64,000 bases of DNA, taken from Acidobacteriota bacterium (GTDB lineage: Bacteria > Acidobacteriota > Vicinamibacteria > Vicinamibacterales > UBA2999). Under the pieces are notes generated by a model that was given only the letters and a program-made list of their open reading frames with translations, did not search any database and was not told the origin of the DNA. The stretch is from assembly GCA_030650395.1 (NCBI GenBank), contig JAUSDY010000063.1:6855-70854 (forward strand), in the 5' to 3' direction. Shown piece by piece: positions 2,465 through 33,716 of the stretch; the first letter of the stretch is position 1, and each line of letters starts with the position of its first letter. Both the position numbers and the translations under genes were made by a program.

Positions 2465-2538
2465 TGGCTGGGAGGCAGGGATTCGAACCCCGATAAGCAG
2501 AGTCAGAGTCTGCTGTCCTACCGTTGAACGACCTCCCA
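2465..2538 (-). tRNA. tRNA-Gln (anticodon CUG), CCA encoded
   Basis: Minus strand 74 nt folds by hand as a cloverleaf: TGGGAGG TC GTTC AACGGTA GGAC A GCAGA CTCTGAC TCTGC TTAT CGGGG TTCGAAT CCCTG CCTCCCA G CCA. Confidence 0.9.
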
Positions 2539-6428: not shown

Positions 6429-8075
6429 CTACTGCGAGGATGGTGTTCCGCTGGCGATCCTCCTGGCTTCCGACACTTCCGGCCGCTCGGTATCGGCCTT
6501 CGCGCACATGGCGAGGAGGTCGCGCGCGTAGCGCCCCGCCGCGGCGCCGTCGCCCGAACGCTCGGCGGCACGCATCGCGCCCGCGACGCTGTTGAAGCGC
6601 TTGGGCGAATGCGCCAGCGTCGCCTGGTAGGCCTTCAGCGCTTCGGCCGGCTGCTGCTGCGCGAGCAGCAGATCGCCGAGCAGCTCGCGCGCCGGCAGCA
6701 CCGCGCCGGGCGTGACGGGGTGCTTCTCGATCGATTCCTCGAGGTCGGCTGCCGAACGCAGCAGCGTGACCGCTTCGTCGGGGCGGCCCTCGGCCTGCGC
6801 GATCCACGCGGCGGCGGCACGGCGTTGCGCCTCGATCAAGCCGGCGTACTTGTCTTTTCCGTTCACCTCCCGGTGGCGCGCCTCGAGCGTCGCCACCTGC
6901 TGCTTCGCCCGCGGCAGGTCGCCCGTGCGCGCCGCGCCGAGCGCGGCGGCGAAGTAGATGTTGGTCTCCGACCAGCGGTACTGCTCCCACGCAATGTTGG
7001 TCGCCGGCAGCGCGAGGGCCGCGGCCGCGCGCCAGTCGCGCCGCTCGAGCGCGTAACGCGCCGGCCCCGCCGCCAGCGCGTAGGCGGCGGCAATCACCGG
7101 CGGCTCCGCTCGCGTGACGCCGCGCAGCCGTTCGAGCACCTCTGCGGCGCGACGATCCTGCGCGCCCTGCAGGTAGCCGTACATCAGGTAGTCGAGCGCG
7201 TGCAGCTCCTGATCCCAGACGCCGGCCATGCCGCTCCGCGTCGCAAAGGTCCGCGCCGACTCGGCCGACGCGATGTTCGAGAGGATCGCGTCCTCCCACA
7301 GCCCGAGGCGCGTGAAGATGTGCGACGGCATGTGGAGCGCGTGCGGCACGCCGGGCGCGATCTTGGCGTAGGAGCGGGCCGCGCCGAGCGCCAGGTGCGC
7401 CAGCTCCGGCGCGTCATAGGCGTGGATGAAGTAGTGGGCGATGCCCGGATGGCGCGGCTGTGCGGCAGCAACGGCGTCGAGCAGGCCGGCCGCCTTCTTC
7501 TGCCGCGCGAAGGTGCGATCCGATGGCAAGCCGGCCGCGCTCCCGAGCAGCGCCAGCGCATAGAACGCGGCCGCCTCGTCGTCTTTTGGATGCGCGGCAT
7601 GCACCTCCGCCATCGCAGCTTCGTACGCGGCCACGCGCGCGGGGTACGGGGTCGCATCTTGATAGAGAGCGGCGACCGCCCGGACGTAAGCCTGCTCGCG
7701 CGCATCGGCATGCTTCGCGGTCTTCGCCCGGGCAATGGCGGCCGACGCCCGCTGCATCTCCGCCGCGGACGGGGGCTGCCAGAGCGGTTTGTGCAGGCTC
7801 ATCGCCACGCCCCAGTGGGCGATCGCGCACTCGGGCTCGCGCCCGGCGATGGCGGCGAAGGCGGCTTCCGCCCGTTCGTACCAGAACGAGTGGAGCATGG
7901 CGACGGCGCGCTCCAGGTCCGGCTGAACGGCGGGGGCGCAGGTGGTGGAAAACGTGACGCGTCCGACGTCTTCACCCGCCTGGGCGCCGTGCTGGTGCTC
8001 CTGGGCGGCGACGGGCGCGGGGGAGAGAGCGAACAGCAACGCCGCGACTGCGAGAACCGATCCACGAATCATCAT
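6429..8075 (-). CDS. Secreted helical-repeat (TPR-like) protein, family not recognised
   Basis: 548 aa; signal peptide MMIRGSVLAVAALLFALSPAPVAAQ; Ala/Leu-rich helical repeats; + strand ORF 6192..8228 is its Arg-rich shadow. Confidence 0.7.
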   Translation of the reverse strand: MMIRGSVLAVAALLFALSPAPVAAQEHQHGAQAGEDVGRVTFSTTCAPAVQPDLERAVAMLHSFWYERAEAAFAAIAGREPECAIAHWGVAMSLHKPLWQPPSAAEMQRASAAIARAKTAKHADAREQAYVRAVAALYQDATPYPARVAAYEAAMAEVHAAHPKDDEAAAFYALALLGSAAGLPSDRTFARQKKAAGLLDAVAAAQPRHPGIAHYFIHAYDAPELAHLALGAARSYAKIAPGVPHALHMPSHIFTRLGLWEDAILSNIASAESARTFATRSGMAGVWDQELHALDYLMYGYLQGAQDRRAAEVLERLRGVTRAEPPVIAAAYALAAGPARYALERRDWRAAAALALPATNIAWEQYRWSETNIYFAAALGAARTGDLPRAKQQVATLEARHREVNGKDKYAGLIEAQRRAAAAWIAQAEGRPDEAVTLLRSAADLEESIEKHPVTPGAVLPARELLGDLLLAQQQPAEALKAYQATLAHSPKRFNSVAGAMRAAERSGDGAAAGRYARDLLAMCAKADTERPEVSEARRIASGTPSSQ

Positions 8076-8107: not shown

Positions 8108-8384
8108 CTATCGCCGTTTCTTCTTCGGCTTGGGCTTGGGCTTGGCTGTCGTTTTTGTCCTCGTCTTGGGCTCTGGCTTGGCGCCCTTGGATTGCGGCTT
8201 TGCCGCAAGCACATCCTGTAGCTCATAGGCCTTGTTGTGGGGACAAACCTTTAGGTTTGTCCTTGACCGGAGCGATGCGCGGCGGAACCGCTTTGAGGAT
8301 GTGTCTGCGCGCGGTGGTATACCGCTCGCCGGTCTTGGCGGCGCGATCGCGAATCAGTTGCTTGAGGGCTCGGGCGCGGGTCAT
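8108..8384 (-). pseudogene. Small basic protein gene split by a 22-nt hairpin element
   Basis: ATG 8384 gives MTRARALKQLIRDRAAKTGERYTTARRHILKAVPPRIAPVKDKPKGLSPQQGL* (stop 8223). Deleting GGACAAACCTAAAGGTTTGTCC joins it in frame to ...NHNKAYELQDVLAAKPQSKGAKPEPKTRTKTTAKPKPKPKKKRR* (stop 8108). Confidence 0.4.
8237..8262 (+). repeat. GTRG-hairpin micro-element A1 (GACAAACC subfamily)
   Basis: GTGG GGACAAACC TTTA GGTTTGTCC; interrupts the small ORF 8108..8384. Confidence 0.85.
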
Positions 8385-9117: not shown

Positions 9118-11477
9118 GCTCCCGGCGCGACTTCATCAAATCGTCGGGCATGCTCGTCGTCGGGATTGCAGCGACGAACTCGCTTGCGGATGCATTCGTA
9201 GGGCCCCCCTTTATGGGGGGCCAAAATGCTGCGGGCCCGTATCCCGATCCCGATTTCCACCAGCTCGACTCCTGGATCGTCATCCGCCAGGACAACACCG
9301 CGACGTTCTTCGTCGGCAAGACCGATCTCGGCCAGGGCACCGGCACGGCGTTCCGCCAGATCATGTGCGACGAGCTCGACATCGCGTACGACAAGACCAG
9401 CTGCGTGATGGGCAGCACGCACAACACCGTCGATCAAGGCGGGTCCGGCGGATCCGATGCGTTGCAGACGGATGGCTATCCGATGCGCCGCGTCGCCGCC
9501 GAAGCCCGGCGTGTGTTGCTCGAGATGGGAGCGACCCATTTCGGCGTTCCCGTGTCTGCCCTCGCTGTGAGCGACGGTGTGATCTCCGTGCGTAGAGGCG
9601 GGTCTTTAGACCCGCCTACGCGTGGCGACAAACCTTTAGGTTTGTCGATCACCTACGGCGACCTGATCGGCGGCAGGAAGTTCAACGTCACGTTGACCGG
9701 CCGCAACACCGATGCGACCACGGGCGTTGCGCCGCTCAAGCCGGTGCAGGAGATGAAGAACGTCGGCAAGTCGCCGCAGCGCTACGACATTCCCGCCAAG
9801 GTTGAAGGCTCGCTGAAGTGGGCGGTGGACGTAAAGGCTCCGGGAATGGTCCACGCGCGCAACGTCAAGCCGCCGGTCGCCGGCGCCACGCTCGTCAGCA
9901 TCGACGAAGCGTCGGTGCGCGGGATTCCGGGGTTCATCACAGTGGTGAGCAAAGGCAACTACGTTGCGGTGGTGTGCGAGCGCGAGGAGCAGGCGATCCG
10001 CGCGGCGAGGCAGATCAAGGTCGACTGGAAGAAGCCGGCAACGGCGCCCTTCCCTGCTTCCGACGATCTGTTCACGTACATGCGCGCGGCGTCGCCCTCG
10101 TCTACTGGTAAACCAACTGAAATCGGCGCGACCGATGCCTCGTTCGCCAGTGCGGCCACGGTGATCGAAGCCGAGTACGACGTGCCGTTCCAGGGCCACA
10201 CCGCGATCGGCCCGGCGCATGCGATGGCCGATCCGTCGAACGATCAGCTCACCATCTACACCAACGACATGAAGTCGTACGGCATGCGCAACGGCGTCGC
10301 CGAGTTCCTCAAGATGCCGCGCGACCGCGTCCGCGTCGTCTGGATGGAAGGGCCGCAAGGCTACGGCCGCACCGCGGCGGACGATGCGGGGTTTGAGGCG
10401 GCGTATCTGGCAAAGGAGATCGGCCGTCCGGTGCGGGTGCAGTGGAGCCGGCAGGAAGAAACGGCGTGGGACACCAAGGGTCCGGCGTATGCGTTCAAGA
10501 TGCGCGGCGGCCTCGATGCCCAGGGCAACGTCGTCGCGCTCCACTACGACGCGTGCGCTGCAGATCACAATCATCTTGGCTACAACGAACACGAGACTGT
10601 TCTGATCTCGCAGCTGATGGGCATCCGGAAAGCGACGCCCTCGCCCGGACGTGCGTCGCTGCCGTCGGACATGTACGTGATTCCGAACCGCAAGCAGACG
10701 ACGAGGGTGGTGCCGCTGCCGATGCCGTTCGAGACGCCTCTTCGTACCGGCAACCTGCGCGACCCCGATGGTCCGCAGGTAACGTTTGCGGCGGAGAGCT
10801 TCATCGACGAGCTCGCCGTCGCGGCGAAGGCGGACCCGGTGGCGTTCCGCTTGAAGATGTTGCAGGCGAGCACGGGCGACGACAGCGGCTTCAAGCGCGC
10901 GCGCTCGATCGTGTGCATCAAGGCGGCGGCGGAGAAGTTCGGCTGGGACCCGCGCCCTTCACCGAAGGTGCCAGTTGGTGGAGACAAACCTTTAGGTTTG
11001 TCTGAAGATATTCTCACCGGCCGCGGCATCGCGTATGCGTACCGCAGTCAGACCGTGGTCGCCGAGATCGCCGAGGTCGAGGTCAATCGCAAGACCGGCC
11101 GCGTCTGGGTGAAGCGCCTGGTGATCGCGCACGACTGCGGGCTGGTGATCAACCCGGCCGCGCTCACGCGCGTGATCGAGTGCGGCGCGCTTTATGGTCT
11201 GAGCCGGGCGCTCCACGAGGAAGTGAAGTTCGACACCGAGAAGGTCACGAGCGTGGACTGGGTGACGCATCCGACGCTGACGCATGCGGATACGCCGGAG
11301 CGAATCGATGTGGTGCTGGTGAATGGGGACCCGAACCCGAACCGGCCCGACCTGCAGCACTACGGCGCCGGCGAGACGATGTGCAAGCCGATGCTGGCGG
11401 CGGTGGCGAACGCGGTATTTGATGCGACGGGAACCCGCTTGAGACGCATACCCCTTAGCCTCCCGCGTCCTGTTTGA
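9114..11477 (+). CDS. Molybdopterin-binding large subunit (IorB/aldehyde oxidoreductase type), Tat-exported
   Basis: ATGA overlap with the small subunit; twin-arginine signal SRRDFIKSSG; 787 aa; carries four hairpin inserts (see repeats). Confidence 0.9.
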   Translation: MSSRRDFIKSSGMLVVGIAATNSLADAFVGPPFMGGQNAAGPYPDPDFHQLDSWIVIRQDNTATFFVGKTDLGQGTGTAFRQIMCDELDIAYDKTSCVMGSTHNTVDQGGSGGSDALQTDGYPMRRVAAEARRVLLEMGATHFGVPVSALAVSDGVISVRRGGSLDPPTRGDKPLGLSITYGDLIGGRKFNVTLTGRNTDATTGVAPLKPVQEMKNVGKSPQRYDIPAKVEGSLKWAVDVKAPGMVHARNVKPPVAGATLVSIDEASVRGIPGFITVVSKGNYVAVVCEREEQAIRAARQIKVDWKKPATAPFPASDDLFTYMRAASPSSTGKPTEIGATDASFASAATVIEAEYDVPFQGHTAIGPAHAMADPSNDQLTIYTNDMKSYGMRNGVAEFLKMPRDRVRVVWMEGPQGYGRTAADDAGFEAAYLAKEIGRPVRVQWSRQEETAWDTKGPAYAFKMRGGLDAQGNVVALHYDACAADHNHLGYNEHETVLISQLMGIRKATPSPGRASLPSDMYVIPNRKQTTRVVPLPMPFETPLRTGNLRDPDGPQVTFAAESFIDELAVAAKADPVAFRLKMLQASTGDDSGFKRARSIVCIKAAAEKFGWDPRPSPKVPVGGDKPLGLSEDILTGRGIAYAYRSQTVVAEIAEVEVNRKTGRVWVKRLVIAHDCGLVINPAALTRVIECGALYGLSRALHEEVKFDTEKVTSVDWVTHPTLTHADTPERIDVVLVNGDPNPNRPDLQHYGAGETMCKPMLAAVANAVFDATGTRLRRIPLSLPRPV
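9198..9222 (+). repeat. GTAG-hairpin micro-element A2
   Basis: GTAG GGCCCCCC TTTAT GGGGGGCC; in frame in the Mo-oxidoreductase gene (encodes VGPPFMGG). Confidence 0.85.
9592..9619 (+). repeat. GTAG-hairpin micro-element A3
   Basis: GTAG AGGCGGGTC TTTA GACCCGCCT AC; a GTAG box on both strands; encodes RRGGSLDPPT. Confidence 0.85.
9622..9647 (+). repeat. GTRG-hairpin micro-element A4 (GACAAACC subfamily)
   Basis: GTGG CGACAAACC TTTA GGTTTGTCG, 2 nt after A3; encodes GDKPLGLS. Confidence 0.85.
10978..11003 (+). repeat. GTRG-hairpin micro-element A5 (GACAAACC subfamily)
   Basis: GTGG AGACAAACC TTTA GGTTTGTCT; same frame as A4, again encodes GDKPLGLS. Confidence 0.85.
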
Positions 11478-13105: not shown

Positions 13106-13651
13106 ATGCCTCACCCCGGCACCCCTAAAAGGGGTGCCCTACCGCCGCTGCGCGATCGGATCCGGCCGGGCGTGCGCGTGCTCTTCGTCGGCATCAACCC
13201 CGGCATCCGGTCGTCGCAGACCGGCCATCACTTCGCCGGCCCGTCGAATCGGTTCTGGCTATTGCTGTATGCGTCGGGGCTCGTTCCCGAGCGGCTCACG
13301 TTGGAGCATGACGATCGGTTGCCTGAGTTCCGGTTCGGCATCACCAACATCGTTGCGCGGCCGACGCCCGGCATCGATACGCTGACGCCGGCCGAGTACG
13401 TCGAGGGCCGCCTCAAGCTGCGCCGGAAGATTCTGAAGAACAAGCCGAAGGTCGTGGCGATGGTCGGCGTGACGGTGTTCCGCGCGATGTTTCCCGGGCG
13501 GAAAGACGCGGTGACCCTCGGAATTCAATCCGAGCGAATCGGAGAAACGGCGGTCTTCGTGTTGCCCAATCCAAGCGGACGCAATGCCAACTTCACCTGC
13601 GCGGAAATGCTGGCGGCGTTTCGCGGGTTGCGACGCTACCTGGTCAGGTAG
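13106..13651 (+). CDS. mug: G/U mismatch-specific uracil-DNA glycosylase
   Basis: Colinear by eye with E. coli Mug as I remember it: VLFVGINPG, GHHFAGPSNRFW, NIVARPT, VLPNPSGRN; first 20 aa include a hairpin element. Confidence 0.85.
   Translation: MPHPGTPKRGALPPLRDRIRPGVRVLFVGINPGIRSSQTGHHFAGPSNRFWLLLYASGLVPERLTLEHDDRLPEFRFGITNIVARPTPGIDTLTPAEYVEGRLKLRRKILKNKPKVVAMVGVTVFRAMFPGRKDAVTLGIQSERIGETAVFVLPNPSGRNANFTCAEMLAAFRGLRRYLVR
13118..13142 (-). repeat. GTAG-hairpin micro-element A6
   Basis: + strand GGCACCCC TAAAA GGGGTGCC CTAC; in frame in the mug N-terminus (GTPKRGALP). Confidence 0.85.
13636..13651. repeat. 16-bp palindrome CTACCTG-gt-CAGGTAG forming the whole mug/gltD overlap
   Basis: Both convergent genes terminate in it (TAG on each strand); the proteins end ..YLVR* and ..YLTR*. 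Confidence 0.8.
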
Positions 13652-15084
13652 TGATCAATGGCAGCGGCCGCGCGCCGGCCGTCGTCAATCGCCCAGACGA
13701 TAAGCGACTGACCTCGCTGCATGTCGCCGGCAGCAAAGACACCGGGAACGCTCGTCATCCATTGCTCATCGCGCGCGACGGTGCCGCGGTCGTTGATGCG
13801 AACATCGAGCTCGGCCAGCAATCGGCTCTTCTCGGGGCCGACGAACCCCATCGCAAGCAGCACGAGATCGGCTTTCATTTCGAACGCGCTGTTTGCAACA
13901 GGCTCGAAACTGACGCGGCCACCAGAGACGGTGCGCTCGACGCGGTGGCCGTGGAGCATGCGGACGTGTCCGCTGTCATCGCCAGTGAGCTCTGTAGTGG
14001 CAACGGCGTAGACGCGATCGCCGCCTTCTTCGTGCGCCGGCGACGTGCGAAAGACGTTCGGCCATAACGGCCACGGATTGTCGGCCGCTCGTTCCTGCGG
14101 AGGCGTGGGCAACAATTCGAGCTGGCTCACCGATGCCGCGCCCTGGCGATGCACGGTGCCAAGGCAATCCGCGCCGGTGTCGCCGCCGCCGATGATGATG
14201 ACGTGTTTGCCTTCGGCCCAAAGGGCATTAGCGGAGCTAAAGCTCCGCTCTACGGCACCGTTGTCGAGGTCATCGCCCTGGCAGCGGCGGTTTTGCTGGG
14301 TCAGGTATGGCATCGCGAAGTGGACGCCGTCGAGACCGCGGCCGGGCACGTTGAGATCGCGCGGCTGGCCCGCGCCGCCGGCAAGAAGAACCGCGTCGAA
14401 GTCACGCTGCAGGTCCTGGGCCGTCACGTCCACGCCGACATCGACGCGCGTCCGGAACACCACGCCCTCGGCCGCCAGCAGATCGAGGCGGCGATCGAGC
14501 ACGCGCTTTTCCATCTTGAACTCGGGAATGCCGTAGCGCAGCAGCCCGCCAACGCGATCTGACTTCTCGAACACGGTCACGCTGTGGCCAGCGGCGTTGA
14601 GCTGCGCGGCCGCCGCGAGGCCGGCCGGTCCCGAGCCGACGATGGCCACTTTCTTCCAGGTGCGCGTCGGCGGCGGCTGCGGAACGATCCACTCTTCGTC
14701 GAACGCGCGATCGACAATGGCGAGCTCGATTGACTTGATGGTGACGGGATCCTTATTGATCCCCAGCACGCACGATCCTTCGCACGGCGCCGGACACAGC
14801 AGGCCCGTGAACTCAGGAAAGTTGTTGGTCTGGTGCAGGCGCTCGATCGCCGCTCGCCACGAATCGCGGTAGACCAGATCGTTCCAGTCGGGGATGAGGT
14901 TGCCGAGCGGGCAGCCTTGGTGACAGAACGGGATGCCGCAGTCCATGCAGCGCGCGGCCTGGCGCGTCAGGTCCTCGACCGGATAGGCCTTGTAGACGTG
15001 CCGATAGTCGCCAATACGTTCGGCAATGGGTCTGGAGGGCTGTTTCACCCTCGAGAACTCTATGAAACCTGTGGCTTTACCCAT
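13636..15084 (-). CDS. gltD: Glutamate synthase (NADPH) small subunit
   Basis: 482 aa; CMDCGIPFC...CPLGN Fe-S motifs; GSGPAGLAAA dinucleotide fold; directly downstream of gltB. Confidence 0.95.
   Translation of the reverse strand: MGKATGFIEFSRVKQPSRPIAERIGDYRHVYKAYPVEDLTRQAARCMDCGIPFCHQGCPLGNLIPDWNDLVYRDSWRAAIERLHQTNNFPEFTGLLCPAPCEGSCVLGINKDPVTIKSIELAIVDRAFDEEWIVPQPPPTRTWKKVAIVGSGPAGLAAAAQLNAAGHSVTVFEKSDRVGGLLRYGIPEFKMEKRVLDRRLDLLAAEGVVFRTRVDVGVDVTAQDLQRDFDAVLLAGGAGQPRDLNVPGRGLDGVHFAMPYLTQQNRRCQGDDLDNGAVERSFSSANALWAEGKHVIIIGGGDTGADCLGTVHRQGAASVSQLELLPTPPQERAADNPWPLWPNVFRTSPAHEEGGDRVYAVATTELTGDDSGHVRMLHGHRVERTVSGGRVSFEPVANSAFEMKADLVLLAMGFVGPEKSRLLAELDVRINDRGTVARDEQWMTSVPGVFAAGDMQRGQSLIVWAIDDGRRAAAAIDHYLTR
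14231..14253 (-). repeat. GTAG-hairpin micro-element A7
   Basis: + strand GCGGAGC TAAA GCTCCGC TCTAC; in frame in gltD (VERSFSSA). Confidence 0.85.
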
Positions 15085-15122: not shown

Positions 15123-19763
<4,641 letters not shown>

Positions 19764-25369: not shown

Positions 25370-26731
25370 ATGTCTTCCGCCAGCTCGGCGCCGCCGAGTG
25401 AATCGCTGGTCCGCGCGATCGGCACGTTCGGGCTCGCCGCCGGGATCATCAACATCACGATCGGCGGCGGCATCTTCCGCCTGCCTGCGAACGTGGCTGA
25501 ATCGCTCGGCGCCGCGGCGCCGATCGCCTATCTCGTCTGCGCCGTTGCGATGGGTTTGATCGTGCTGTGCATCGCCGACGCGGGCAGCCGGGTCTCGCTC
25601 ACCGGCGGGCCGTACGCCTACGTCGGCACGGCGTTCGGGCCGTATGCCGGCTTCATCTCGGGCGTGCTGTTATGGATGCTCGGCACATTCGCGACTGCCG
25701 CGGTGTCAACGGTGCTGGCCTCGAGCCTTGGGCTGCTGATGCCGGCCCTGGCCGGCCGCACGATGGAGATCGCGATCCTGGTGGTCGCCTACGGTTTCTG
25801 GTCGCTCATCAACCTGCGCGGGGTCACACTCGGCGTGCGGCTCAATTCGATCGCGACGGTGGCGAAGCTGCTGCCGCTGTTGCTGGTGGCAATCGGCGGA
25901 GCGTTCTTCGTGCAGAGCGAGAACCTGCGCATCGTGTCGATGCCCGCGGCGGCGGACGTCGCTCGCACCTCACTGCTGTTGATCTTCGCCTTCGCGGGGA
26001 TCGAATGCGCGCTCGTGCCGAGCGGCGAAGTGCGCGACACCGCGCGCACGGTTCCGCGCGCGATCGCGCTTGCCATGCTCGGCATCACCGCGCTCTACGT
26101 GGCGCTGCAAGTGGTGGCGCAGGGCATTCTTGGCAGCGGCCTCGCGCACGCCACCGTGTCGCCGCTCGCCGACGCCGCCGGCGCTTCACTCGGCGGCTGG
26201 GCACGCTCACTCTTGCTCGCCGGTGCGACCGTCTCGATGTTCGGCTACCTGGGCGGCATGACGCTCTCGATGCCGCGAATGCTGTTCGCACTCGCCCGCG
26301 ACGGCTTCCTGCCGCGCGCGCTGGCGTCGGTGCACCCGGTGCATCGCTCACCCCAGGCCGCCATCATCGCGCAGTCGCTTCTCGCGCTCGTGTTGGCCAT
26401 CTCCGGCACGTTCGAGAAACTCGCCATCCTCGCCAACGTCTCGGCGCTGGCGCTGTATTTCGGCTGCGCGCTGGCGTCGTGGCGGCTTCGTCAGCTCGGC
26501 GTGAGCGGCCCTTCGACTCGTTCCCGCCCCTTTCGGGGCGGGACCTCGCTCAGGGCAGGCGACGTGGTGCCATGGCTGGCGTGCGCCGTGATCGTGTGGC
26601 TGCTTACCGGCCTGACGCGCGACGAGTGGCTCGGCTTCGGCGTGTGCCTTGCGGCCGGAACGCTGGTGTATTTCTTGGCACGTTCGCGGAAGTTTAGTTC
26701 CGCGATCGACAGCAATAGAATGCAGGGATGA
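25370..26731 (+). CDS. APC-superfamily amino acid permease
   Basis: 453 aa, about 12 hydrophobic segments; C-terminal tail carries two repeat inserts. Confidence 0.85.
   Translation: MSSASSAPPSESLVRAIGTFGLAAGIINITIGGGIFRLPANVAESLGAAAPIAYLVCAVAMGLIVLCIADAGSRVSLTGGPYAYVGTAFGPYAGFISGVLLWMLGTFATAAVSTVLASSLGLLMPALAGRTMEIAILVVAYGFWSLINLRGVTLGVRLNSIATVAKLLPLLLVAIGGAFFVQSENLRIVSMPAAADVARTSLLLIFAFAGIECALVPSGEVRDTARTVPRAIALAMLGITALYVALQVVAQGILGSGLAHATVSPLADAAGASLGGWARSLLLAGATVSMFGYLGGMTLSMPRMLFALARDGFLPRALASVHPVHRSPQAAIIAQSLLALVLAISGTFEKLAILANVSALALYFGCALASWRLRQLGVSGPSTRSRPFRGGTSLRAGDVVPWLACAVIVWLLTGLTRDEWLGFGVCLAAGTLVYFLARSRKFSSAIDSNRMQG
26509..26561 (+). repeat. 53-nt composite GC-rich element B1
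   Basis: CCCTTCGACTCG tt CCCGCCCC tttc GGGGCGGG ACCTCGCTCAGGGCAGGCG; in frame in the permease (GPSTRSRPFRGGTSLRAG). Confidence 0.8.
26685..26704. repeat. Hairpin micro-element A10 (CGCGGAA subfamily, degenerate GTAG box)
   Basis: CGCGGAA GTTTAG TTCCGCG; in frame in the permease tail (SRKFSSA). Confidence 0.7.
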
Positions 26732-27717
26732 CTTCAACGCTCCCGATCCTGAAGACCGAGGATGTGCTGGAGGCCCTGCGCGGCCTCAGGACACGCCAGC
26801 CGGTCAAATACTGGGCTTTTTACTCCAGCCAGCTCGGTGGCATCGTCACCGACCCGGCGCTGATGGTGTTGCCGTTCGACGACCACATGGTCCATCGCGG
26901 GCACGGCATCTTCGACACCGCGGCGATCGTCGGCGGCAAGCTTTACGACCTCGACGCTCACCTCGACCGCTTCATCGCATCGGCCGAGCGTTCCAAGCTT
27001 CGCTTGCCGGGCACGCGCCAGCAAATGCGCGACATCATCATGGCCACCGCCGCTGCCAGCGGCAAACCCGACGGCGGCATCCGCTACTGGCTTTCATCCG
27101 GGCCCGGCAGTCTCGATCTCACCCCGGCCGCCGGCGCGGATCCCGGGTTCTTCGTCATGATCTTCGCCGGCCTCTCGTACCCCGAACGTTGGTACAACGA
27201 GGGGCTCAAGGTGATGACGACGACGTACCCGATCAAGCCGGCGCTCTACGCGATCACCAAAAGCACGAACTATCTGCCCAACGTGCTGATGCAGATGGAA
27301 GCGAAAGAAGTCGGTCTCGATAACGGCGTCTTCATCGACAAGGACGGCTTCATCGGCGAGAGCTCGAACATGAACGTGGCGTTCGTCACGCAGGACGGCG
27401 TGTTCCGCCATCCGAAGTTCGATCAGATCCTGTCGGGCTGCACGTCCAAGCGGCTGCTCGAGCTCGCGCCCCGATTGGTGGAGCGCGGTCTCATCAAAGG
27501 CGTTGAGGTCTGCGACATCCCGGTCGCCGACGCGCGCGCCGCGCGGGAGATGATGCTGTTCGGCAGCTCGATCAAGGTGGCGCCGATCGTCGAGTGGGAC
27601 AAGAAGCCGATCCACGACGGCAAGCCCGGACCGGTATCGAAGGCGCTACTCGAGCTGCTCGAGGAAGACATGCGGACGACGAGTCAGGGCCGGCTGGTCG
27701 ATCTGGGCACCCCATAA
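26728..27717 (+). CDS. Class IV (fold-type IV) aminotransferase
   Basis: 329 aa; HRGHGIFDT, NYLPNVLMQMEAKEVG, ESSNMNVAFV motifs; ATGA overlap with the permease; stop codon lies in a hairpin loop. Confidence 0.85.
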   Translation: MTSTLPILKTEDVLEALRGLRTRQPVKYWAFYSSQLGGIVTDPALMVLPFDDHMVHRGHGIFDTAAIVGGKLYDLDAHLDRFIASAERSKLRLPGTRQQMRDIIMATAAASGKPDGGIRYWLSSGPGSLDLTPAAGADPGFFVMIFAGLSYPERWYNEGLKVMTTTYPIKPALYAITKSTNYLPNVLMQMEAKEVGLDNGVFIDKDGFIGESSNMNVAFVTQDGVFRHPKFDQILSGCTSKRLLELAPRLVERGLIKGVEVCDIPVADARAAREMMLFGSSIKVAPIVEWDKKPIHDGKPGPVSKALLELLEEDMRTTSQGRLVDLGTP

Positions 27718-27730
27718 AGGGGTGCCCTAC
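27706..27730 (-). repeat. GTAG-hairpin micro-element A12
   Basis: + strand GGCACCCC ATAAA GGGGTGCC CTAC; the loop TAA (27715-27717) is the aminotransferase stop codon. Confidence 0.85.
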
Positions 27731-27734
27731 ATCG

Positions 27735-28040
27735 TTATTTCCCCAGCTCGACGATCGTGATGGCGTTCCAGTCGTTCATCGGAATCACCAGGCGATTGCG
27801 CTTCGAGTCGTAGGTCATCGACGCCGCGCTTGGAATGCCGGAAGCAATAATCTCCGCCTTCTGCCCCGGGCGGATGCGCGACACGGTGCCCTGCCGCACG
27901 CTGCTGACGTACTTGGTGCCGTCGGGAACGATGACGAGGCCATCGTTACCGGCGTCGACTGCCTGCTCGGTCGCCAGCAGCTTGCCGTCGGGCGAAAACG
28001 TCAGGACGTCGTTGGATCCTTGGATGACGACCGATCGATC
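27735..28040 (-). pseudogene. C-terminal fragment of a beta-propeller protein (SMP-30/NHL-like)
   Basis: Only the last ~100 codons of track ORF 27735..28232 look protein-like (VVIQGSNDVLTFSPDGKLLATE...NRLVIPMNDWNAITIVELGK); upstream part is a shadow of the neighbouring frame. Confidence 0.4.
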
Positions 28041-28759
28041 GGTTCCATCCGGTAGACCGGCGTCGGCTTGCCGTCGCGATCGTCGGTGACCAGGTAGATC
28101 AACCCATCGAGTCCCTGGCGGATGTCGCGGATGCGGCCCATCTGCGGCACCAGCGTTTCGCGCGGGCTCGTCGGCGTCAGCCGCACCAATTGCTGGCCGA
28201 CCATGCCACCGACAAAGAGATGGTTCCGCCACTGCGGAAACTTGTCGCCGGTGTAGAACATCATCCCGGAGATGCCGATCGACGGGACCCAGACCTGCAC
28301 CGGTTGTTCCATGCCCTCGCGGTGCGTGCCCGAATGAATCGCCAGCCCCGTCGTGTAGTTAACGCCGAACCCAACCACCGGCCAGCCGTAGTTGCGGCCC
28401 GGAAGAATGCGATTGAGCTCGTCACCGCCCTGCGGCCCGTGTTCGTTCGCCCACACCTCGCCGGTTTCCGGATGAATGGCGAGTCCCTGGACGTTGCGAT
28501 GCCCGTAACTCCAGATCTCGGGCCGCGCGTCCGCGCGGTTCACAAACGGATTGTCGGCCGGCACCCGGCCATCGTCATGCAGCCGGATAGTCTTGCCGTG
28601 GTGGTTCGACAGATCCTGCGCCGGGTGCGCTTCGAGCTTGCCTTCCGGCGGCACCTGGCGATCGCCGAGCGTGAGAAAGAGGAAGCCGTTCTTGTCGAAC
28701 GCAATCTTGCCGCCGAAGTGCCCGCGGCCGGTGGAGACTGATTCGAACAACTGCGTCAC
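28001..28759 (-). pseudogene. PQQ-dependent sugar dehydrogenase (YliI-like), N-terminal third missing
   Basis: HFGGKIAFDKNGFLFLTLGD, GHRNVQGLAIHP, GGDELN, NYGWP ... PVYRMEP motifs; homology starts at about residue 130 of a typical ~370-aa enzyme; no signal peptide. Confidence 0.65.
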
Positions 28760-28776
28760 GCCGGTGAGCCGATCGA

Positions 28777-28788
28777 GGGGTGCCCTAC
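28777..28788 (-). repeat. Half element A13 (right arm plus GTAG box only)
   Basis: + strand GGGGTGCC CTAC with no left arm; CTA (28785-28787) is the complement of the truncated pilT stop TAG. Confidence 0.6.
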
Positions 28789-29597
28789 CTCATGATCAGC
28801 GAGTCTTCATCGGGCACATCCGCCAGCTGCACGCGCAGGTTGCCGGCGTTGGTGGCGTAAAGGTACGCGGTCAACGCGATCTCGATGGTCTCGCGGTCGC
28901 GCATCTCGCCGACTAGAATCACCTTCGGCGCCTGCCGCAGCGCGGCGCGCAGCGCCAGCGCGAACGTCGGCGTGTCGTTGTGCAGCTCGCGCTGGTGGAC
29001 GGTGCCCATCTTGTGGACGTGCAGGAACTCGATCGGGTCCTCGATGGTGAGGATGTGCTCGGCGCGGCTTTCGTTGATCAAATCGATGATCGCGGCCAGC
29101 GTGGACGACTTGCCGGAGCCGGTCGGGCCGGTCACCAGCACGATGCCGTTCTTGAGCGTGGCCGTGTCGGCAATCGCGGGCGGCAGGTTCAGCTCCTCGA
29201 TGCTGGGAATCTTCGACGCGATCATCCGCATCACGATCGCGAACGTGTTGCGCTGCTTGAAGACGTTGACGCGAAACCGGCACCGGTCGGGCAGCGAATA
29301 CGACAGATCGGTCGCGCCCTGTTCTTTCAGCGTCTTCAACACGTGCTCGTTGCCGTTGATCAGGTCGCAGGCGATGCCGGCCGTATCTTCCGGCCGCAGC
29401 ACCGGCAGCTCGGGCACCGAGACGGGCATCAAGTTGCCGTGCCGCTCGACCTGCGGCGGGCGCCAGGGTGAGAACACCAGGTCGCTGATGCCGTCGCCCG
29501 AGTCAATCAACGCCAGGATGACTGCCGGCGTCGGCAAGGCGCGGGTCTTGTCGGTGCCAAACAGTGCGTCGTTCAGGGTAGAAGCCGGGGTCGTCAT
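28785..29597 (-). pseudogene. pilT: PilT-like type IV pilus retraction ATPase, C-terminally truncated
   Basis: Walker A GPTGSGKSST, Asp box, Walker B ILVGEMRD present, but the sequence diverges after ETIEIALTA; the His box (TGHLV..TLHT) is absent; 270 aa versus about 345-370 typical. Confidence 0.65.
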
Positions 29598-29615
29598 AGT
29601 CGGAGCGTTAGCTTA

Positions 29616-29668
29616 CCCTTCGACTCGATCCCGCCGCTATAGCGGCGGGATCTCGCTCAGGGCAGGCG
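29616..29668 (+). repeat. 53-nt composite GC-rich element B2
   Basis: CCCTTCGACTCG at CCCGCCGC tata GCGGCGGG ATCTCGCTCAGGGCAGGCG; intergenic; 47/53 identical to B1 with a compensated stem change. Confidence 0.8.
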
Positions 29669-29774
29669 CTCCCCTCAGAGCAGGCCGATCGCAAAAAACA
29701 GGCCGAAAAGCACGACGAGATTCGGCGGATGTTCGAGGCGGAGCTGGCGGGATTGCGGAAGACGGGAGGACACG

Positions 29775-30674
29775 GTGAGTGATCCGTTCATCATCGAGAC
29801 GGCCGGACTCCACAAGAACTACGACGGTATCGAAGCGCTGCGCGGCCTGACCCTCCAGGTGCCGGCTGGCTCGATCTTCGGGTTCCTGGGCAGAAACGGC
29901 GCCGGCAAGACGACGACGATCAAGATCCTGCTCGGCCTGGCAAAGCCGACCAGCGGCAAGGCGCACGTCTTCGGGCTCGATGCCGACGATCAGGCGGCGA
30001 GCGTCGCGATCCGACGCCGCACGGCGTTTGTCAGCGACGAAAAGGATCTCTACGACTACATGACCGTGGGCGAGATGATTCGGTTCACCGCCTCCTTCTT
30101 CCCGAAATGGCGCGCCGACATGGAGGAGCGGCAACTGCGCCGCTTCGACTTGCGACGCGAGCGGCCGATCAAAGGACTGTCGCGCGGCATGCGCACCAAG
30201 CTTTCGCTGCTGCTCGCGCTGTGCCGCGGCGCCGAGCTGCTGATCCTCGATGAGCCGACCTCGGGCCTCGACCCCGTCGTGACCGAAGAGGTGCTGCAGG
30301 CGCTCGTCTCCGGCGTGGCCGGCGAAGCGATGACAGTGTTCTTCTCGTCGCACCAGATTAGCGAGGTCGATCAAATCGCCGATCACGTCGCGATCATCGA
30401 TCGCGGGCAGTTGGCGATCTCGGGTGCGCTCGACGACCTGCGCCAGAATTATCGGCGCATCCAACTGGTCTTCGAGGGCGACGCGCCGAACGTCAAGTTC
30501 CACCCCGCCGGCGTCAGGCGCGTGCAGCGCAAGGGCCGCGTCCTCACGATTCTCTCCAGTGCCGGGACCGAGCAAATCCTGGACGAAGCCAAACGCTACC
30601 GTCCCGTCTCGATCGACGTCGTCCCCGTCACGCTGAAAGACATTTTTCTCGAAACCGTTGCCGCGGAGGACTGA
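29775..30674 (+). CDS. ABC transporter ATP-binding protein
   Basis: GTG start 4 nt after GGGAGGA; Walker A GRNGAGKTT, signature LSRGMRTKLSL, Walker B LLILDEPTSGLD. Confidence 0.9.
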   Translation: MSDPFIIETAGLHKNYDGIEALRGLTLQVPAGSIFGFLGRNGAGKTTTIKILLGLAKPTSGKAHVFGLDADDQAASVAIRRRTAFVSDEKDLYDYMTVGEMIRFTASFFPKWRADMEERQLRRFDLRRERPIKGLSRGMRTKLSLLLALCRGAELLILDEPTSGLDPVVTEEVLQALVSGVAGEAMTVFFSSHQISEVDQIADHVAIIDRGQLAISGALDDLRQNYRRIQLVFEGDAPNVKFHPAGVRRVQRKGRVLTILSSAGTEQILDEAKRYRPVSIDVVPVTLKDIFLETVAAED

Positions 30675-30675
30675 C

Positions 30676-31368
30676 ATGGTCTGGTACAAATCGTGGCTCG
30701 AAACCCGGTGGCGGTTCCTGATCGGCCTGGGAGTGCTGACGCTGCTCGCCTGCGGCGCCGTCTTCGGTTACCCGGCCGTGCAGGAGCTGATGCCCATCGC
30801 GGAGCAAGTGGAGGCGAAGGGTCCAATCGCACAGATTATCAAGGACGCGATTGAGGTGCAGCGCCAGTATCGCGGCTACGTCTGGTATCAATGGGTCCGG
30901 CAGAACCTAACGCAGACGTGGACGATCTTCGCGATCCTGCTCGGCAGCGGAGGGCTGCTGGCGCACGCGTCCGGAGGAGCGCCGCTCTTCACGCTCGCGC
31001 TGCCCGTTTCGCGTCAACAGGTGTTGTGGGTCCGGGCCGCAACAGGTCTCGCGGAGCTGTTGGTGCTCGCGATCGTCCCCTACCTGATCTTTCCTGTGTT
31101 GTCGCCGGCGATCGCTCAGCACTACAGCCTCCGCGATGTCGCTGTGCATGCCACGTGCATCTTCGTCGGCGGCTCGGTGTTCTTCAGCGTCGCGTTGTTT
31201 CTTTCGACGATGTTCAGTGATATCTGGCGGCCGTTGCTGATCACGTGCGCAGTGGCTGTGATGTTGATGCTGATCGAACGGATCCCCGGGGAGTTCTACG
31301 GCATCTTCGGGATCATGAGCGGCGATTCCTATTTCGCGGTGGCGCGGTGCCGTGGGCCGGTCTGCTGA
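30676..31368 (+). CDS. ABC-2-type permease, apparent frameshift near its 3' end
   Basis: MVWYKSWLETRWRFLIGLG... with about 6 hydrophobic segments; after ...GIMSGDSYF the plausible continuation (RGGAVPWAGLLTSATVSAGILYGAATNFARQDF*) is in another frame up to 31436. Confidence 0.65.
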   Translation: MVWYKSWLETRWRFLIGLGVLTLLACGAVFGYPAVQELMPIAEQVEAKGPIAQIIKDAIEVQRQYRGYVWYQWVRQNLTQTWTIFAILLGSGGLLAHASGGAPLFTLALPVSRQQVLWVRAATGLAELLVLAIVPYLIFPVLSPAIAQHYSLRDVAVHATCIFVGGSVFFSVALFLSTMFSDIWRPLLITCAVAVMLMLIERIPGEFYGIFGIMSGDSYFAVARCRGPVC

Positions 31369-31451
31369 CGAGTGCCACGGTGTCGGCGGGGATTTTATAC
31401 GGCGCCGCCACTAATTTCGCCCGGCAGGATTTCTAACGCGCACAGGACAGC

Positions 31452-31475
31452 GTAGCGCGGAACTTTAGTTCCGCG
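31452..31475 (+). repeat. GTAG-hairpin micro-element A11
   Basis: GTAG CGCGGAAC TTTA GTTCCGCG; the complement of loop positions 31465-31467 is the ArsR stop TAA. Confidence 0.85.
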
Positions 31476-31854
31476 GTTTGCAGAAACTCGCGTCAGTCCT
31501 GTTGCCCTTCTCGACAAACCCCTTCAAGCGGCCGAGTGCCTCGTCCCACTGGCACGACATCTGCTCGAGAAAACGACGCGCTTCGTCCAGCCGGTCGGCC
31601 TCGACGTTCCAGATGCGCTCCCGTCCCAGCCTGGCGCTGCGGACGAGTCCGGCGGCGCCGAGAACCTGCAGATGCTTCGTAATGGCCTGCCGGGTCACTG
31701 CGGCCCCCGCGGCCAGCTGGGCGATCGAATGGGGGCCCGCCGAACCAAGACGCAGGACCAGCGCGAGCCGCGTTTCGTCGCCAAGGGCGGCGAAGAGGGG
31801 CGCGGCATGCGCGAAGCCGGCAGGCTTGACAGCCCGGCGCGGCTTGCGGCTCAA
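31465..31854 (-). CDS. ArsR/SmtB-family transcriptional regulator
   Basis: LFAALGDETRLALVLRL...HSIAQLAAGAAVTRQAITKHLQVLGAAGLV winged HTH; TTG start overlapping the upstream stop (cgTTGAgc); stop codon lies in a hairpin loop. Confidence 0.8.
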   Translation of the reverse strand: MSRKPRRAVKPAGFAHAAPLFAALGDETRLALVLRLGSAGPHSIAQLAAGAAVTRQAITKHLQVLGAAGLVRSARLGRERIWNVEADRLDEARRFLEQMSCQWDEALGRLKGFVEKGNRTDASFCKPRN

Positions 31855-32315
31855 CGGGCGCCCGCCCGACTGGTGACGTAACGATCGATGTTCTTGAGCT
31901 GCTCGGTCCATCCTCCCTCGTTCATGCGGAAGGCCGTGTCCCGGCGAGCGGCCGGAATCTGATCGAAACCCGACTCCACCACCGTGAGGCGTGTGCCCTC
32001 GGCGACTTCGTCCAGGCGGAACTCGACGAGCGTTGTGGGCTCGCTCGAGTAATCCACGCCAGGTTCGATGGCATAGGGATGCCAGCGGTACGCGAACACG
32101 CGCTCCGGCTCGACCCGTTCGATCTGCATCGTGAGCGTAAAGTGCTCGTAGCCGGGTGTCGTGATCGGGCCGGAGATCTGCGCGCCCGGAACGAACGCTC
32201 CCGTAACCTTGGCGCCGAACCAGGCTCCGAAATCCTCGGCAGTGGTAATCGCGCGCCAGACCTGCGATCGGGGCGCGCGGATCACCGTGGTTTTCTGGAT
32301 GCGGTCTGAGCTCAT
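31851..32315 (-). CDS. SRPBCC (Aha1-domain) protein
   Basis: MSSDRIQKTTVIRAPRSQVWRAIT...FGAWFG pattern; ATG at 32315 preferred over the TTG at 32321. Confidence 0.8.
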   Translation of the reverse strand: MSSDRIQKTTVIRAPRSQVWRAITTAEDFGAWFGAKVTGAFVPGAQISGPITTPGYEHFTLTMQIERVEPERVFAYRWHPYAIEPGVDYSSEPTTLVEFRLDEVAEGTRLTVVESGFDQIPAARRDTAFRMNEGGWTEQLKNIDRYVTSRAGAR

Positions 32316-32316
32316 A

Positions 32317-32334
32317 TGCAACCTCTTGGTTGCA
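32317..32334. promoter_or_regulatory. Operator-like palindrome TGCAACC-tctt-GGTTGCA
   Basis: Perfect 7-4-7 palindrome abutting the SRPBCC start codon. Confidence 0.55.
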
Positions 32335-32358
32335 CTTTACCGCCGCGCGACCGTCTAA

Positions 32359-32376
32359 TGCAACCATTTGGTTGCA
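32359..32376. promoter_or_regulatory. Operator-like palindrome TGCAACC-attt-GGTTGCA
   Basis: Second identical-arm palindrome 42 bp from the first, same intergenic region. Confidence 0.55.
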
Positions 32377-32384
32377 CGATAACT

Positions 32385-33716
32385 TCAGCGGATCCGCCAG
32401 CCGTTGACCGGCCCGCCGTGGAAGAACGCCGCCGGCGTCATCACGCCGTCTTTCTTGAACACCATCCCGTCCTTCATCACGAACTGGACGTTCTTCAACG
32501 CATTCAGGTCATCGAGCGGGTTGCCGGGAAGGGCGATGATGTCGGCAAAGAATCCCGCCTTGATCGGTCCCCGTGTAGTCTCCGTCTCGCTAAGCTTGTA
32601 GCCGTTGATCGTCATCGCGCGCAGCGTGTCGGCATTGGGGATCGCGGCATCGATCCACGTCTTGAGGAATTCCATGCACAACTCGCCGCGGGTCTTGCCG
32701 GGCACCCAGTAGTCGGCATCGGTGGAAAAGGTCAGCGGCACCTTGTTGGCAAACGCGTTCTTCAGGCCGGCGACCGTGCGCTCGTAGGCTTGCGCCGAAA
32801 CCGGATGGCCTTCGAGGCCCGGCGGCGTTTCGGTGCCGGCGCGGAAGATACCTTTCTGCGCCATCAGCTTGTGGAACTCGTCGGTGAGCGCGCCCGAGTG
32901 CGCGATCGACCAGATGCCGGCCTCAATCGCATTGCGGGCGCCGTTCTGCGTCTGGACGTGCCCTTCGACCTTCATCCCCGACTTGGCCGCCTCGCGGATC
33001 ACCAGCCGGATCTCATCCGCGGTGTACCCGTACGGCTTGCAATCGACGCAGATCTTGATCACCTTCGCCCCGAACAGGACGTTCTGGCGGATCGCCTTCA
33101 CGATCTCATCCGCCGTGTCGGCGTCGAGGTACTCCGGATAGACGATGTTGTGATCGGTGACCATTTCGGGCGTCGGAAAGAACTGCCCGCCCATGCCGCC
33201 GATGATGATGCCGGAGTTGATGATCGTCGGCCCGGGGATCCAGCCCTGCTCGATCGCCTGCCGCAGCGCGGTGTCGGCGTAGAGGGCGTTGTTGCCCATG
33301 TCGCGGACGATCGTGAATCCGGACGCCAGCATCTGGATGCCGTTCGACGCCGCCTGGATGGCGCGCAGCGCCGTCGATTCCTGCACGTAGGTGTAGTAGT
33401 AAACGTTGTTCTCGGGCACCGGCTTGTAGGTGAGCGCGAGGTGGTTGTGCGCCTCGACGAGCCCGGGCATCACGGTCATCGCCGACAGGTCGATCACTTG
33501 CGCGCCCGGCGGAATCGCCAGGTTTGGTCCGACGTCGCGGATGCGCGTGCCCTCGACGAGGATGATCTGATTGGTGAGGATTCGTCCCGCTTCGGGATCG
33601 AGCAAGCGGCCGGCGCGAATGGCGGTGACGGGCGCGGGCGCCTGTGCACGGACGCCATCGCCGAAGAGTAAACAGGCACAAATAACCAATAACGAATTGC
33701 GAATAACCAAGTTCAT
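32385..33716 (-). CDS. Secreted amidohydrolase-family metallohydrolase
   Basis: Internal ATG 33716 gives signal peptide MNLVIRNSLLVICACLLFGDGVRAQA; MPGLVEAHNHL HxH motif. Confidence 0.85.
   Translation of the reverse strand: MNLVIRNSLLVICACLLFGDGVRAQAPAPVTAIRAGRLLDPEAGRILTNQIILVEGTRIRDVGPNLAIPPGAQVIDLSAMTVMPGLVEAHNHLALTYKPVPENNVYYYTYVQESTALRAIQAASNGIQMLASGFTIVRDMGNNALYADTALRQAIEQGWIPGPTIINSGIIIGGMGGQFFPTPEMVTDHNIVYPEYLDADTADEIVKAIRQNVLFGAKVIKICVDCKPYGYTADEIRLVIREAAKSGMKVEGHVQTQNGARNAIEAGIWSIAHSGALTDEFHKLMAQKGIFRAGTETPPGLEGHPVSAQAYERTVAGLKNAFANKVPLTFSTDADYWVPGKTRGELCMEFLKTWIDAAIPNADTLRAMTINGYKLSETETTRGPIKAGFFADIIALPGNPLDDLNALKNVQFVMKDGMVFKKDGVMTPAAFFHGGPVNGWRIR

Follow-up and report, generated by a model that had tools for sequence, protein, structure and literature searches.

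Among repetitive extragenic palindromic (REP) sequences, those with GTAG termini are the closest described relatives of the elements discussed here. According to the parts of the survey by Di Nocera, De Gregorio & Rocco (2013, BMC Genomics 14:522, PMC3733652) on which we draw, GTAG REP termini "often provide the ... stop codon (TAG)", REPs can be intragenic, many single intragenic copies code for 7-8 residues, and a GTGG variant has been described for Opitutus terrae GTAG-20. In E. coli, REPs near stops are reported to cut translation (Liang, Rudd & Deutscher 2015, as cited in the parts of PMC12306157 used here). We describe hairpin elements of this type in a 64,000-nt stretch of DNA (the window; positions 6,855 to 70,854 of contig JAUSDY010000063.1, assembly GCA_030650395.1) from an Acidobacteriota bacterium of the Vicinamibacterales, the order in which homologue searches also place the window; the genome has a G+C content of 65%. 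Three genes in the window, for a class IV aminotransferase, an ArsR/SmtB-family regulator and a PilT-like ATPase remnant, end inside such elements, and we consider it probable (about 0.75) that this stop donation is a passive by-product of REP insertion, adjacent deletions and selection, with no dedicated function.

The hairpins consist of a 4-nt GTAG or GTGG box, a perfect stem of 8-9 bp and a 4-5 nt TTTA(T) loop, 24-26 nt in total. When the window was scanned for GT[AG]G followed by a stem of 7-10 bp, 12 full elements with loops of the TTTA type emerged, and one half copy is present besides. At least five stem types are represented, and all 12 full copies and the half copy have a GTAG or GTGG box. 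The predicted RNA folds are stable on either strand, at -15 to -27 kcal/mol. In this architecture the elements resemble the GTAG (SMAG-like) REPs, which the same parts of PMC3733652 describe as palindromes of 20-40 nt with a GTAG or GTGG end, stems of 6-9 bp and several subfamilies per genome. Three gene stops lie inside elements of the window, compared with about 0.26 expected from uniform placement of about 55 genes and of the 12 full and one half elements in 64 kb. A preliminary description of this DNA had proposed that the hairpins donate these stops and had quoted the terminal codons of the three genes. All three codon strings are exact, coordinates included, and the proposal itself is borne out by the positions of the stops and by orthologues with different C-termini. 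The features concerned are the following.

26728-27717, + strand: class IV aminotransferase, 329 aa, complete (Pfam Aminotran_4 1-223/223)
27715-27717, + strand: TAA stop of the aminotransferase, in the element loop
27706-27730, - strand: full element GTAG GGCACCCC TTTAT GGGGTGCC, 25 nt, between the convergent aminotransferase and fragment X
27735-28020, - strand: fragment X, the final ~95 codons of a conserved gene, with the C-terminus ...ITIVELGK* (* denotes a stop); 5' limit approximate
28001-28776, - strand: glucose/sorbosone dehydrogenase (GSDH) remnant, profile positions 95-329/332, about 128 N-terminal residues lost
28777-28788, - strand: orphan half element GTAGGGCACCCC, that is GTAG and the left arm GGCACCCC only, 12 nt
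28785-28787, - strand: TAG that ends the PilT remnant (atg agg TAG), part of the half element's GTAG box
28785-29597, - strand: PilT-like ATPase remnant, 270 aa, T2SSE positions 90-233 of 370, last ~25 residues unmatched
31452-31475, + strand: full element GTAG CGCGGAAC TTTA GTTCCGCG, 24 nt, overlapping the ArsR stop
31465-31467, - strand: TAA stop of ArsR (ccg cgg aac TAA), in the element loop (TAAA)
31465-31854, - strand: ArsR/SmtB-family regulator (Pfam HTH_20/ArsR)

At its 3' end the aminotransferase reads ctg ggc acc cca TAA (27703-27717, + strand), with the stop in the loop ATAAA of GGCACCCC-ATAAA-GGGGTGCC-CTAC, and its last residues, G-T-P, are coded by the left arm of the element. The predicted RNA folds of this element reach -23.6 and -26.6 kcal/mol (z -4.4 and -5.3). 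Whereas the window protein ends ...DLGTP*, 117 of 120 orthologues (75-94% identical) end ...RLxDL-P* or ...DV-PY*, and a few have short extensions. We then compared the window with related genomic stretches or contigs (numbered L; some are Logan assemblies, run SRR13727527). The native stop is kept in L009 (94%; cca TAG), where a decayed element of the CGCGGAAC type follows 8 nt downstream, and in L002 (92%; cct TAG), where an intact element of that type follows after 15 nt. L007 and L008 (93%) have an element-derived end as in the window (GIP*), in which mutation has turned the loop stop into TGA and another copy is nested, while L006 and L003-L005 have no hairpin at the aminotransferase end. 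Together, the orthologue and DNA comparisons indicate that the element displaced the native stop in the lineage of the window, and the spacer after the aminotransferase is, judging by these alignments, a site of repeated element turnover. In the Logan contig L001 the element at 27706-27730 is identical, and the order aminotransferase-element-X-GSDH-PilT is reproduced. The same gene end carries another repeat in L003 (~10985-11030, longer in L004 and L005), where tandem copies of the 9-nt unit GGGCTGGTA, which contains GTAG, come after the stop of the aminotransferase; their number varies between near-identical contigs.

The element at the ArsR end begins 15 nt past the native stop of the convergent ABC-2 permease. 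Most of the 120 aligned ArsR orthologues end ...FVEK* (116 aa), about one quarter of those displayed having short extensions. In the window the native FVEK is followed by a 13-codon tail, GNRTDASFCKPRN (31506-31468), which most orthologues lack and which also occurs in the 99%-identical P0121. Relative to the syntenic locus L104, homology ends at 31508, four bases before the native ArsR stop, and resumes at 31440 in the permease; the window is without ~1.2 kb (three genes) present in L104, and the element lies inside the 67-nt junction. The arrangement of ArsR converging on the permease is reproduced by the Logan contig L106. The permease itself (30676-31436, + strand) has a 1-nt deletion at ~31318 compared with L104 (TCCTAT-TTCGC vs TCCTATCTTCGC), which shifts the frame of its last ~38 codons; L106 has the same short gene, and the frameshift is either a real pseudogene or a sequence error. 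In L104 (1483-1545) the TAG stop of the ArsR orthologue directly precedes two copies of GGGTCTGACCCC, with TAC after the second, and the pair suggests a different GTAG-type inverted repeat at the same gene end.

The TAG of the PilT-like gene lies in a half element in which GSDH sequence stands directly in place of the loop and right arm. In L002 a full 385-aa GSDH gene lies beside the aminotransferase, with no PilT, and its homology to the window extends up to 28775, one base from the half element. By this comparison, a deletion has joined two gene remnants at 28776/28777, at the tip of the hairpin, and no working gene was given a stop there. The surrounding region (27735-29597, - strand) is a row of three remnants, namely a 5'-truncated X, an N-less GSDH and a C-truncated PilT. 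The GSDH remnant has a 5-residue read-through tail at its 3' end, and the TAA stop of fragment X lies 4 nt from the GTAG end of the element at 27706-27730.

For wider counts we used 84 high-GC stretches, the window and related loci, comprising 643 kb and 530 gene stops. Genes in the related loci were called with our own codon-usage model trained on the window. There are 130 elements, of which 65 are intergenic, 46 lie inside genes (35%) and 19 hold a gene stop, compared with about 2.5 expected. Another 30 elements (30 of the 53 3'-flanking copies) lie no more than 30 nt downstream of a stop, 20 of them at 10 nt or less and 13 within 5 nt. Divergent spacers make up 7 of the 56 classified element-bearing spacers, a count based on crude gene calls in which the internal share is unusually high. 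The 19 element stops comprise seven sense-loop TAG with the tail V[A/G]TNL*, three box TAG and nine antisense-loop TAA, seven of which have the tail [R/G]QT*. In most of the 16 stop-in-element genes outside the window that have a Pfam hit, the domain reaches the end of its profile, or nearly so, immediately ahead of the tail (Aminotran_3 10-403/403, NamZ_C 1-152/152, PfkB 26-301/302, FAA_hydrolase 212/214, GGACT 119/120). As far as these domain limits tell, the additional cases are genuine gene termini in which a few residues have been exchanged, as selection predicts. The same element is also found at 0 to ~52 nt from the upstream gene to the GTGG box in four orthologous loci (L059 5577, L076 7198, L066 6206, L063 5000), which form a series of deletions with the box as their common end; the L059 gene has run into the element (...YLRVGTNL*).

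Stops within the elements arise from three sources, the TAG of the GTAG box, a TAG in the sense reading where TTTA is followed by G, and the TAA of the TAAA loop in the antisense reading. The preliminary description had assumed a simpler rule, in which loop TAA and box TAG close one frame and the two permissive frames are read through. The loop TAA and the box TAG are real, but the number of stop frames varies with subtype and orientation: the 24-nt GTAG types and the 26-nt GTAG type have two stop frames each, the extra TAG being that of TTTA followed by G, and in the 26-nt GTGG type it is the loop, not the box, that holds the stop. Free reading of two frames did not hold up either, as genes hold the main 26-nt type in essentially a single frame for each orientation. 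Where the 26-nt GTGG type lies inside a gene, it codes for xGDKPLGLS in the sense orientation (n=18) and for DKPKGLSP in the antisense orientation (n=14), and the second open frame (WxQTFRFV or TNLKVC) occurs only at doubtful 5' ends. It seems that selection acts on the coded peptide as well as on stops. We also considered that internal copies might occur in the sense orientation only, as all seven do in the window (7/7); this failed in the larger sample, with 30 sense and 16 antisense copies.

Translated element copies are found in the window inside gltB, gltD and the Mo-hydroxylase gene. They are listed here with the remaining copies.

8237-8262, + strand: element GTGG GGACAAACC TTTA GGTTTGTCC, intergenic, between divergent genes
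9198-9222, + strand: element in the Mo-hydroxylase large subunit, coding VGPPFMGG
9592-9647, + strand: direct tandem pair (9592-9617, 9622-9647) in Mo-hydroxylase, coding RGGSLDPP and GDKPLGLS
10978-11003, + strand: element in Mo-hydroxylase, coding GGDKPLGLS, with an L003 copy at the matching position
13118-13142, - strand: element just upstream of a UDG-family gene or at its 5' end
14230-14253, - strand: element in gltD, coding VERSFSSA
16009-16033, - strand: element in gltB, within a 27-nt insertion coding VSRAPLYGA
17322-17345, - strand: element in gltB with one stem mismatch, coding VAWNFSSA, also in L002
33787-33812, - strand: element just upstream of a PQQ-dehydrogenase gene or at its 5' end

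The gltB element at 16009 lies in an insertion of exactly 27 nt (9 codons, VSRAPLYGA) that none of the 120 closest orthologues has. In L102 and L103 the empty site reads ATG^CCG/CCA and has no GTAG, and the 27-nt insert carries GTAAGTAG; at this single clean case, the box thus travels with the element. Across 112 related copies, found by a scan that required GT[AG]G, box positions are invariant while flanking bases are unconserved, and the unit is therefore taken to be the 24-26 nt itself. At the other filled/empty pairs (L082/L013, L030/L044, L079/L057) alignments were ambiguous, with extra decayed or half copies, and yielded no exact mobile unit.

Three further observations concern copies in coding DNA and the gltB gene. 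At two matching positions (window 10978-11003 vs L003 16982-17007, and window 9198 vs L003 15188) the stems differ and yet pair (AGACAAACC vs GGGCAACCC), which suggests compensatory change or palindrome self-correction in coding sequence. In L082 (~2450-2760, - strand) and L019 (~80-300), half elements form in-frame tandems with an 18-nt period (GTGGCGACAAACCTTTAC) inside a coding sequence, with a full copy at the end. Finally, the gltB orthologue of L103 has an in-frame TAG at 7995-7997 (..PDH*TVV..) where the window has CAG (..PDHQTVL..); this splits the gene call and is unrelated to elements.

How might an element come to end a gene without any function in doing so? In G+C-rich DNA stop triplets are scarce, and the element carries them at fixed places. 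Elements would insert or persist in the short spacers after genes, and they adjoin deletions whose limit is either the edge of the box or the tip of the hairpin. Where an insertion or an adjacent deletion takes the native stop or the last codons, the frame would end at the first in-frame stop of the element. Selection would then retain copies that alter few C-terminal residues, as well as internal copies in the single frame that codes for a tolerable Gly/Pro-rich loop (GDKPLGLS or DKPKGLSP), and would purge copies that truncate proteins or code for a disruptive peptide. The steps of this scheme differ in strength. Comparison with orthologues shows the element-derived C-termini to be the derived state. 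Mobility of the elements is probable from presence/absence polymorphism, and a RAYT-like enzyme would presumably be its agent. Element-associated deletion is the likely cause of the junctions, and selection the likely filter on copies. The preliminary description had itself suggested random insertion followed by selection: the domain limits of the further stop-in-element genes fit its prediction that stop-frame copies survive only at 3' ends, but the ArsR and PilT cases are not simple insertions.

Several points weigh against stop donation as a passive by-product. The gene calls in the related loci are crude, with 5' ends and small genes uncertain, and these loci were ascertained through one 20-mer, so that the sample is biased to one subfamily. 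No convincing RAYT-like open reading frame (ORF) was found by two motif scans and phmmer in six-frame ORFs of the window and ~790 kb of loci, a search with three RAYT-like query sequences in incomplete genomes. The stop-in-element state of the Dus gene is present both in L044 (...VGTNL*) and in L030 (...RTNL*), whose DNA is ~88% identical, and such a shared state is also compatible with retained function. In addition, the closeness of elements to stops (13 within 5 nt and 19 overlapping) could reflect targeting or function.

Two more purposeful explanations can be set beside the passive one, and we regard both as unlikely. In the first, the REPs of Vicinamibacterales would actively remodel gene ends through nuclease-driven deletions that start from the GTRG box or the hairpin tip and erode the spacer as far as the point where the element's own stop captures the reading frame, stop capture being systematic and partly selected. 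If this were true, it would create a protein family with stereotyped C-terminal tails (V[A/G]TNL, [R/G]QT, GTP), and a stop within a stable hairpin could modulate termination or trans-translation. In the second, to which we give equally little weight, the hairpin, overlapping the stop or at most about 15 nt from it, would be a selected regulatory device that tunes the upstream gene by stalling ribosomes or by blocking 3'-5' exonucleases. By analogy with E. coli, the hairpins may plausibly influence mRNA stability or termination, as REPs less than 16 nt from a stop reportedly cause ribosomes to stall and reduce translation (in the parts of PMC12306157 used here), and the stability of the hairpins in both orientations (-15 to -27 kcal/mol), their strong positional concentration (19 overlapping a stop and 20 no more than 10 nt downstream) and the Dus state common to two species-level relatives would all fit such a device. 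However, the subfamily of the element, its position (overlap, +8, +15 nt) and its state (intact, nested or decayed) vary at the aminotransferase locus, and it is absent from L006 and L003-L005; this turnover argues against a conserved device. The same elements also occur inside genes (35%) and in 5' regions, and two of the three window cases lie in pseudogene or rearranged contexts.

More doubtful still is that the box stop is the gene's own codon, a native ...G TAG having served as the target and the hairpin having inserted 3' of it in the manner of IS200/IS605. This reading draws on two of the GTAG-box cases, in which orthologues that lack the element at the position concerned have the same C-terminus and stop position: ...GTVTQ TAG in L030 vs ...GTVTQ TAA in L044, and ...IVELGK TAG in L006 vs ...IVELGK TAA in the window and L007. 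In these two alignments the TAG coincides with the gene's own stop. The comparison of C-termini that the preliminary description had proposed thus gave a divided answer, as the aminotransferase and ArsR ends differ from those of orthologues that lack the element there, and the two box-TAG ends are identical to those of such orthologues, which is the outcome named there as refuting stop donation. Yet the empty gltB site has no GTAG, and its 27-nt insert brings its own box. A native target also leaves 16 of the 19 stops, which are loop-derived, unexplained, and it is inapplicable to the PilT case of the window, which is a truncation. GTAG as a pre-existing insertion target was accordingly rejected at gltB, the one clean empty site; it is possible for the box-stop cases.

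Intrinsic (Rho-independent) termination, raised as a possibility in the preliminary description, is very improbable. Stems of 8-9 bp that are rich in G+C and follow convergent or co-directional genes at their 3' ends do have the look of terminators, but no T-run follows any of the three hairpins on either strand, and a scan of 26500-32500 for terminator-like sites returned nine, none of them at 27706, 28777 or 31452. Identical elements are, moreover, translated in gltB, gltD and Mo-hydroxylase, where termination would be harmful, and we rejected the terminator role. It is scarcely credible that the junctions are misassemblies at a repeated 25-nt element that produced false truncated genes, even though the source is metagenome-assembled, repeats of 24-26 nt can confuse short-k assemblies and several neighbouring genes look broken. 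Both arrangements recur in the Logan contigs L001 and L106 (run SRR13727527), which may come from one and the same sample and would then speak for assembler-independence only, and the PilT/GSDH junction has a 12-nt half copy, too short for a mis-join.

We turn now to the distribution of the elements. Among GTRG-tagged hairpins in the 643 kb of high-GC DNA the loop is TTTA in 105 and TTCA in 17, all other loops being singletons. The 20-mer GACAAACCTTTAGGTTTGTC of the commonest stem matches at least 92 stretches in GTDB genomes, mostly metagenome-assembled genomes (MAGs) of Vicinamibacterales/Acidobacteriota, with up to 19 loci from one MAG among the matches listed; others include a 41%-GC Nitrospirae MAG, an Ignavibacteria MAG and a Dehalococcoidia MAG. 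The 26-nt unit GTAG GGACAAACC TTTA GGTTTGTCC also occurs in genomes of 40-51% GC from other phyla (L017, L020, L032, L033, L070, L072 and L085 of the Nitrospirae MAG MHER01; L081; L010). There it forms inverted doublets with a near-identical GGACAGACC partner, most clearly in the Nitrospirae MAG, and a single REP sequence is thus common to phyla of very different base composition. Between its REP doublets, L032 has chemotaxis and porin ORFs and no RAYT. In the window the copies are singletons and one direct tandem (9592/9622), with no inverted doublet; doublets were seen only in the low-GC genomes of other phyla. All 13 window copies lie within 8.2-33.8 kb and none in 34000-64000, despite equal gene density. 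An Rfam search of the window at the gathering score matched no element, its sole hit being a tRNA at 2468-2538 (- strand).

What the elements mean in practice is mainly a matter of annotation. In these little-studied soil Acidobacteriota, many gene ends and internal loops of 8-9 residues are REP-coded, even in gltB and gltD, and tails, extensions and truncations of element origin are to be expected wherever genes are called or orthologues compared. Where the genome is rich in G+C, an AT-rich loop becomes a ready-made stop, and REP copies mark deletion junctions. Known REP biology is unchanged by this, since stop donation by GTAG REPs and intragenic REPs were already described in 2013, in the parts of PMC3733652 cited above.

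The GTAG REPs of that survey, as presented in those parts, lie mostly after genes, between convergent or co-directional ORFs and often less than 20 bp from a stop, a pattern that the elements described here may follow. These elements differ in that most stops come from the loop (TAA, or TAG from TTTA followed by G) and not from the box, loop-derived stops receiving no mention in the parts of PMC3733652 drawn on, and in that 35% of the sampled copies lie inside genes. The stem sequences (GGACAAACC, GGCACCCC, CGCGGAAC and others) and the coded peptides and tails have no match in PMC3733652 or its supplements. GTAG REPs have a cognate RAYT (a Y1/HUH transposase), its gene flanked by REPs, and for the elements described here none was located in the DNA searched. 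The REPIN/RAYT systems (Bertels & Rainey 2011, PMC3116915; Nunvar et al. 2010, PMC2817692) likewise have GTAG-flanked hairpins, and the inverted doublets in low-GC genomes recall them. In contrast to REPINs, the Vicinamibacterales copies are mostly singletons or direct tandems, and a cognate transposase was not found in the DNA searched. RPE-1, a Rickettsia palindromic element (RPE) of an AT-rich obligate intracellular host, is ~100-150 bp long and codes for tens of residues. Unlike RPE, the elements here measure 24-27 nt (8-9 residues) and have a GTAG box. They resemble RPE (Ogata et al. 2000/2002, as cited in the parts of PMC3733652 used here) as palindromes that lie in frame and are translated in functional genes. 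With the E. coli REPs covered in the parts of PMC12306157 cited above they have in common a hairpin within 15 nt of the upstream gene's stop; here, in contrast, the stop sits inside the hairpin. Set beside these systems, our finding is essentially a known REP side effect, real but ordinary, which calls for no new mechanism and to which the loop-derived stops and the recurrent tails (V[A/G]TNL*, [R/G]QT*) are minor additions.

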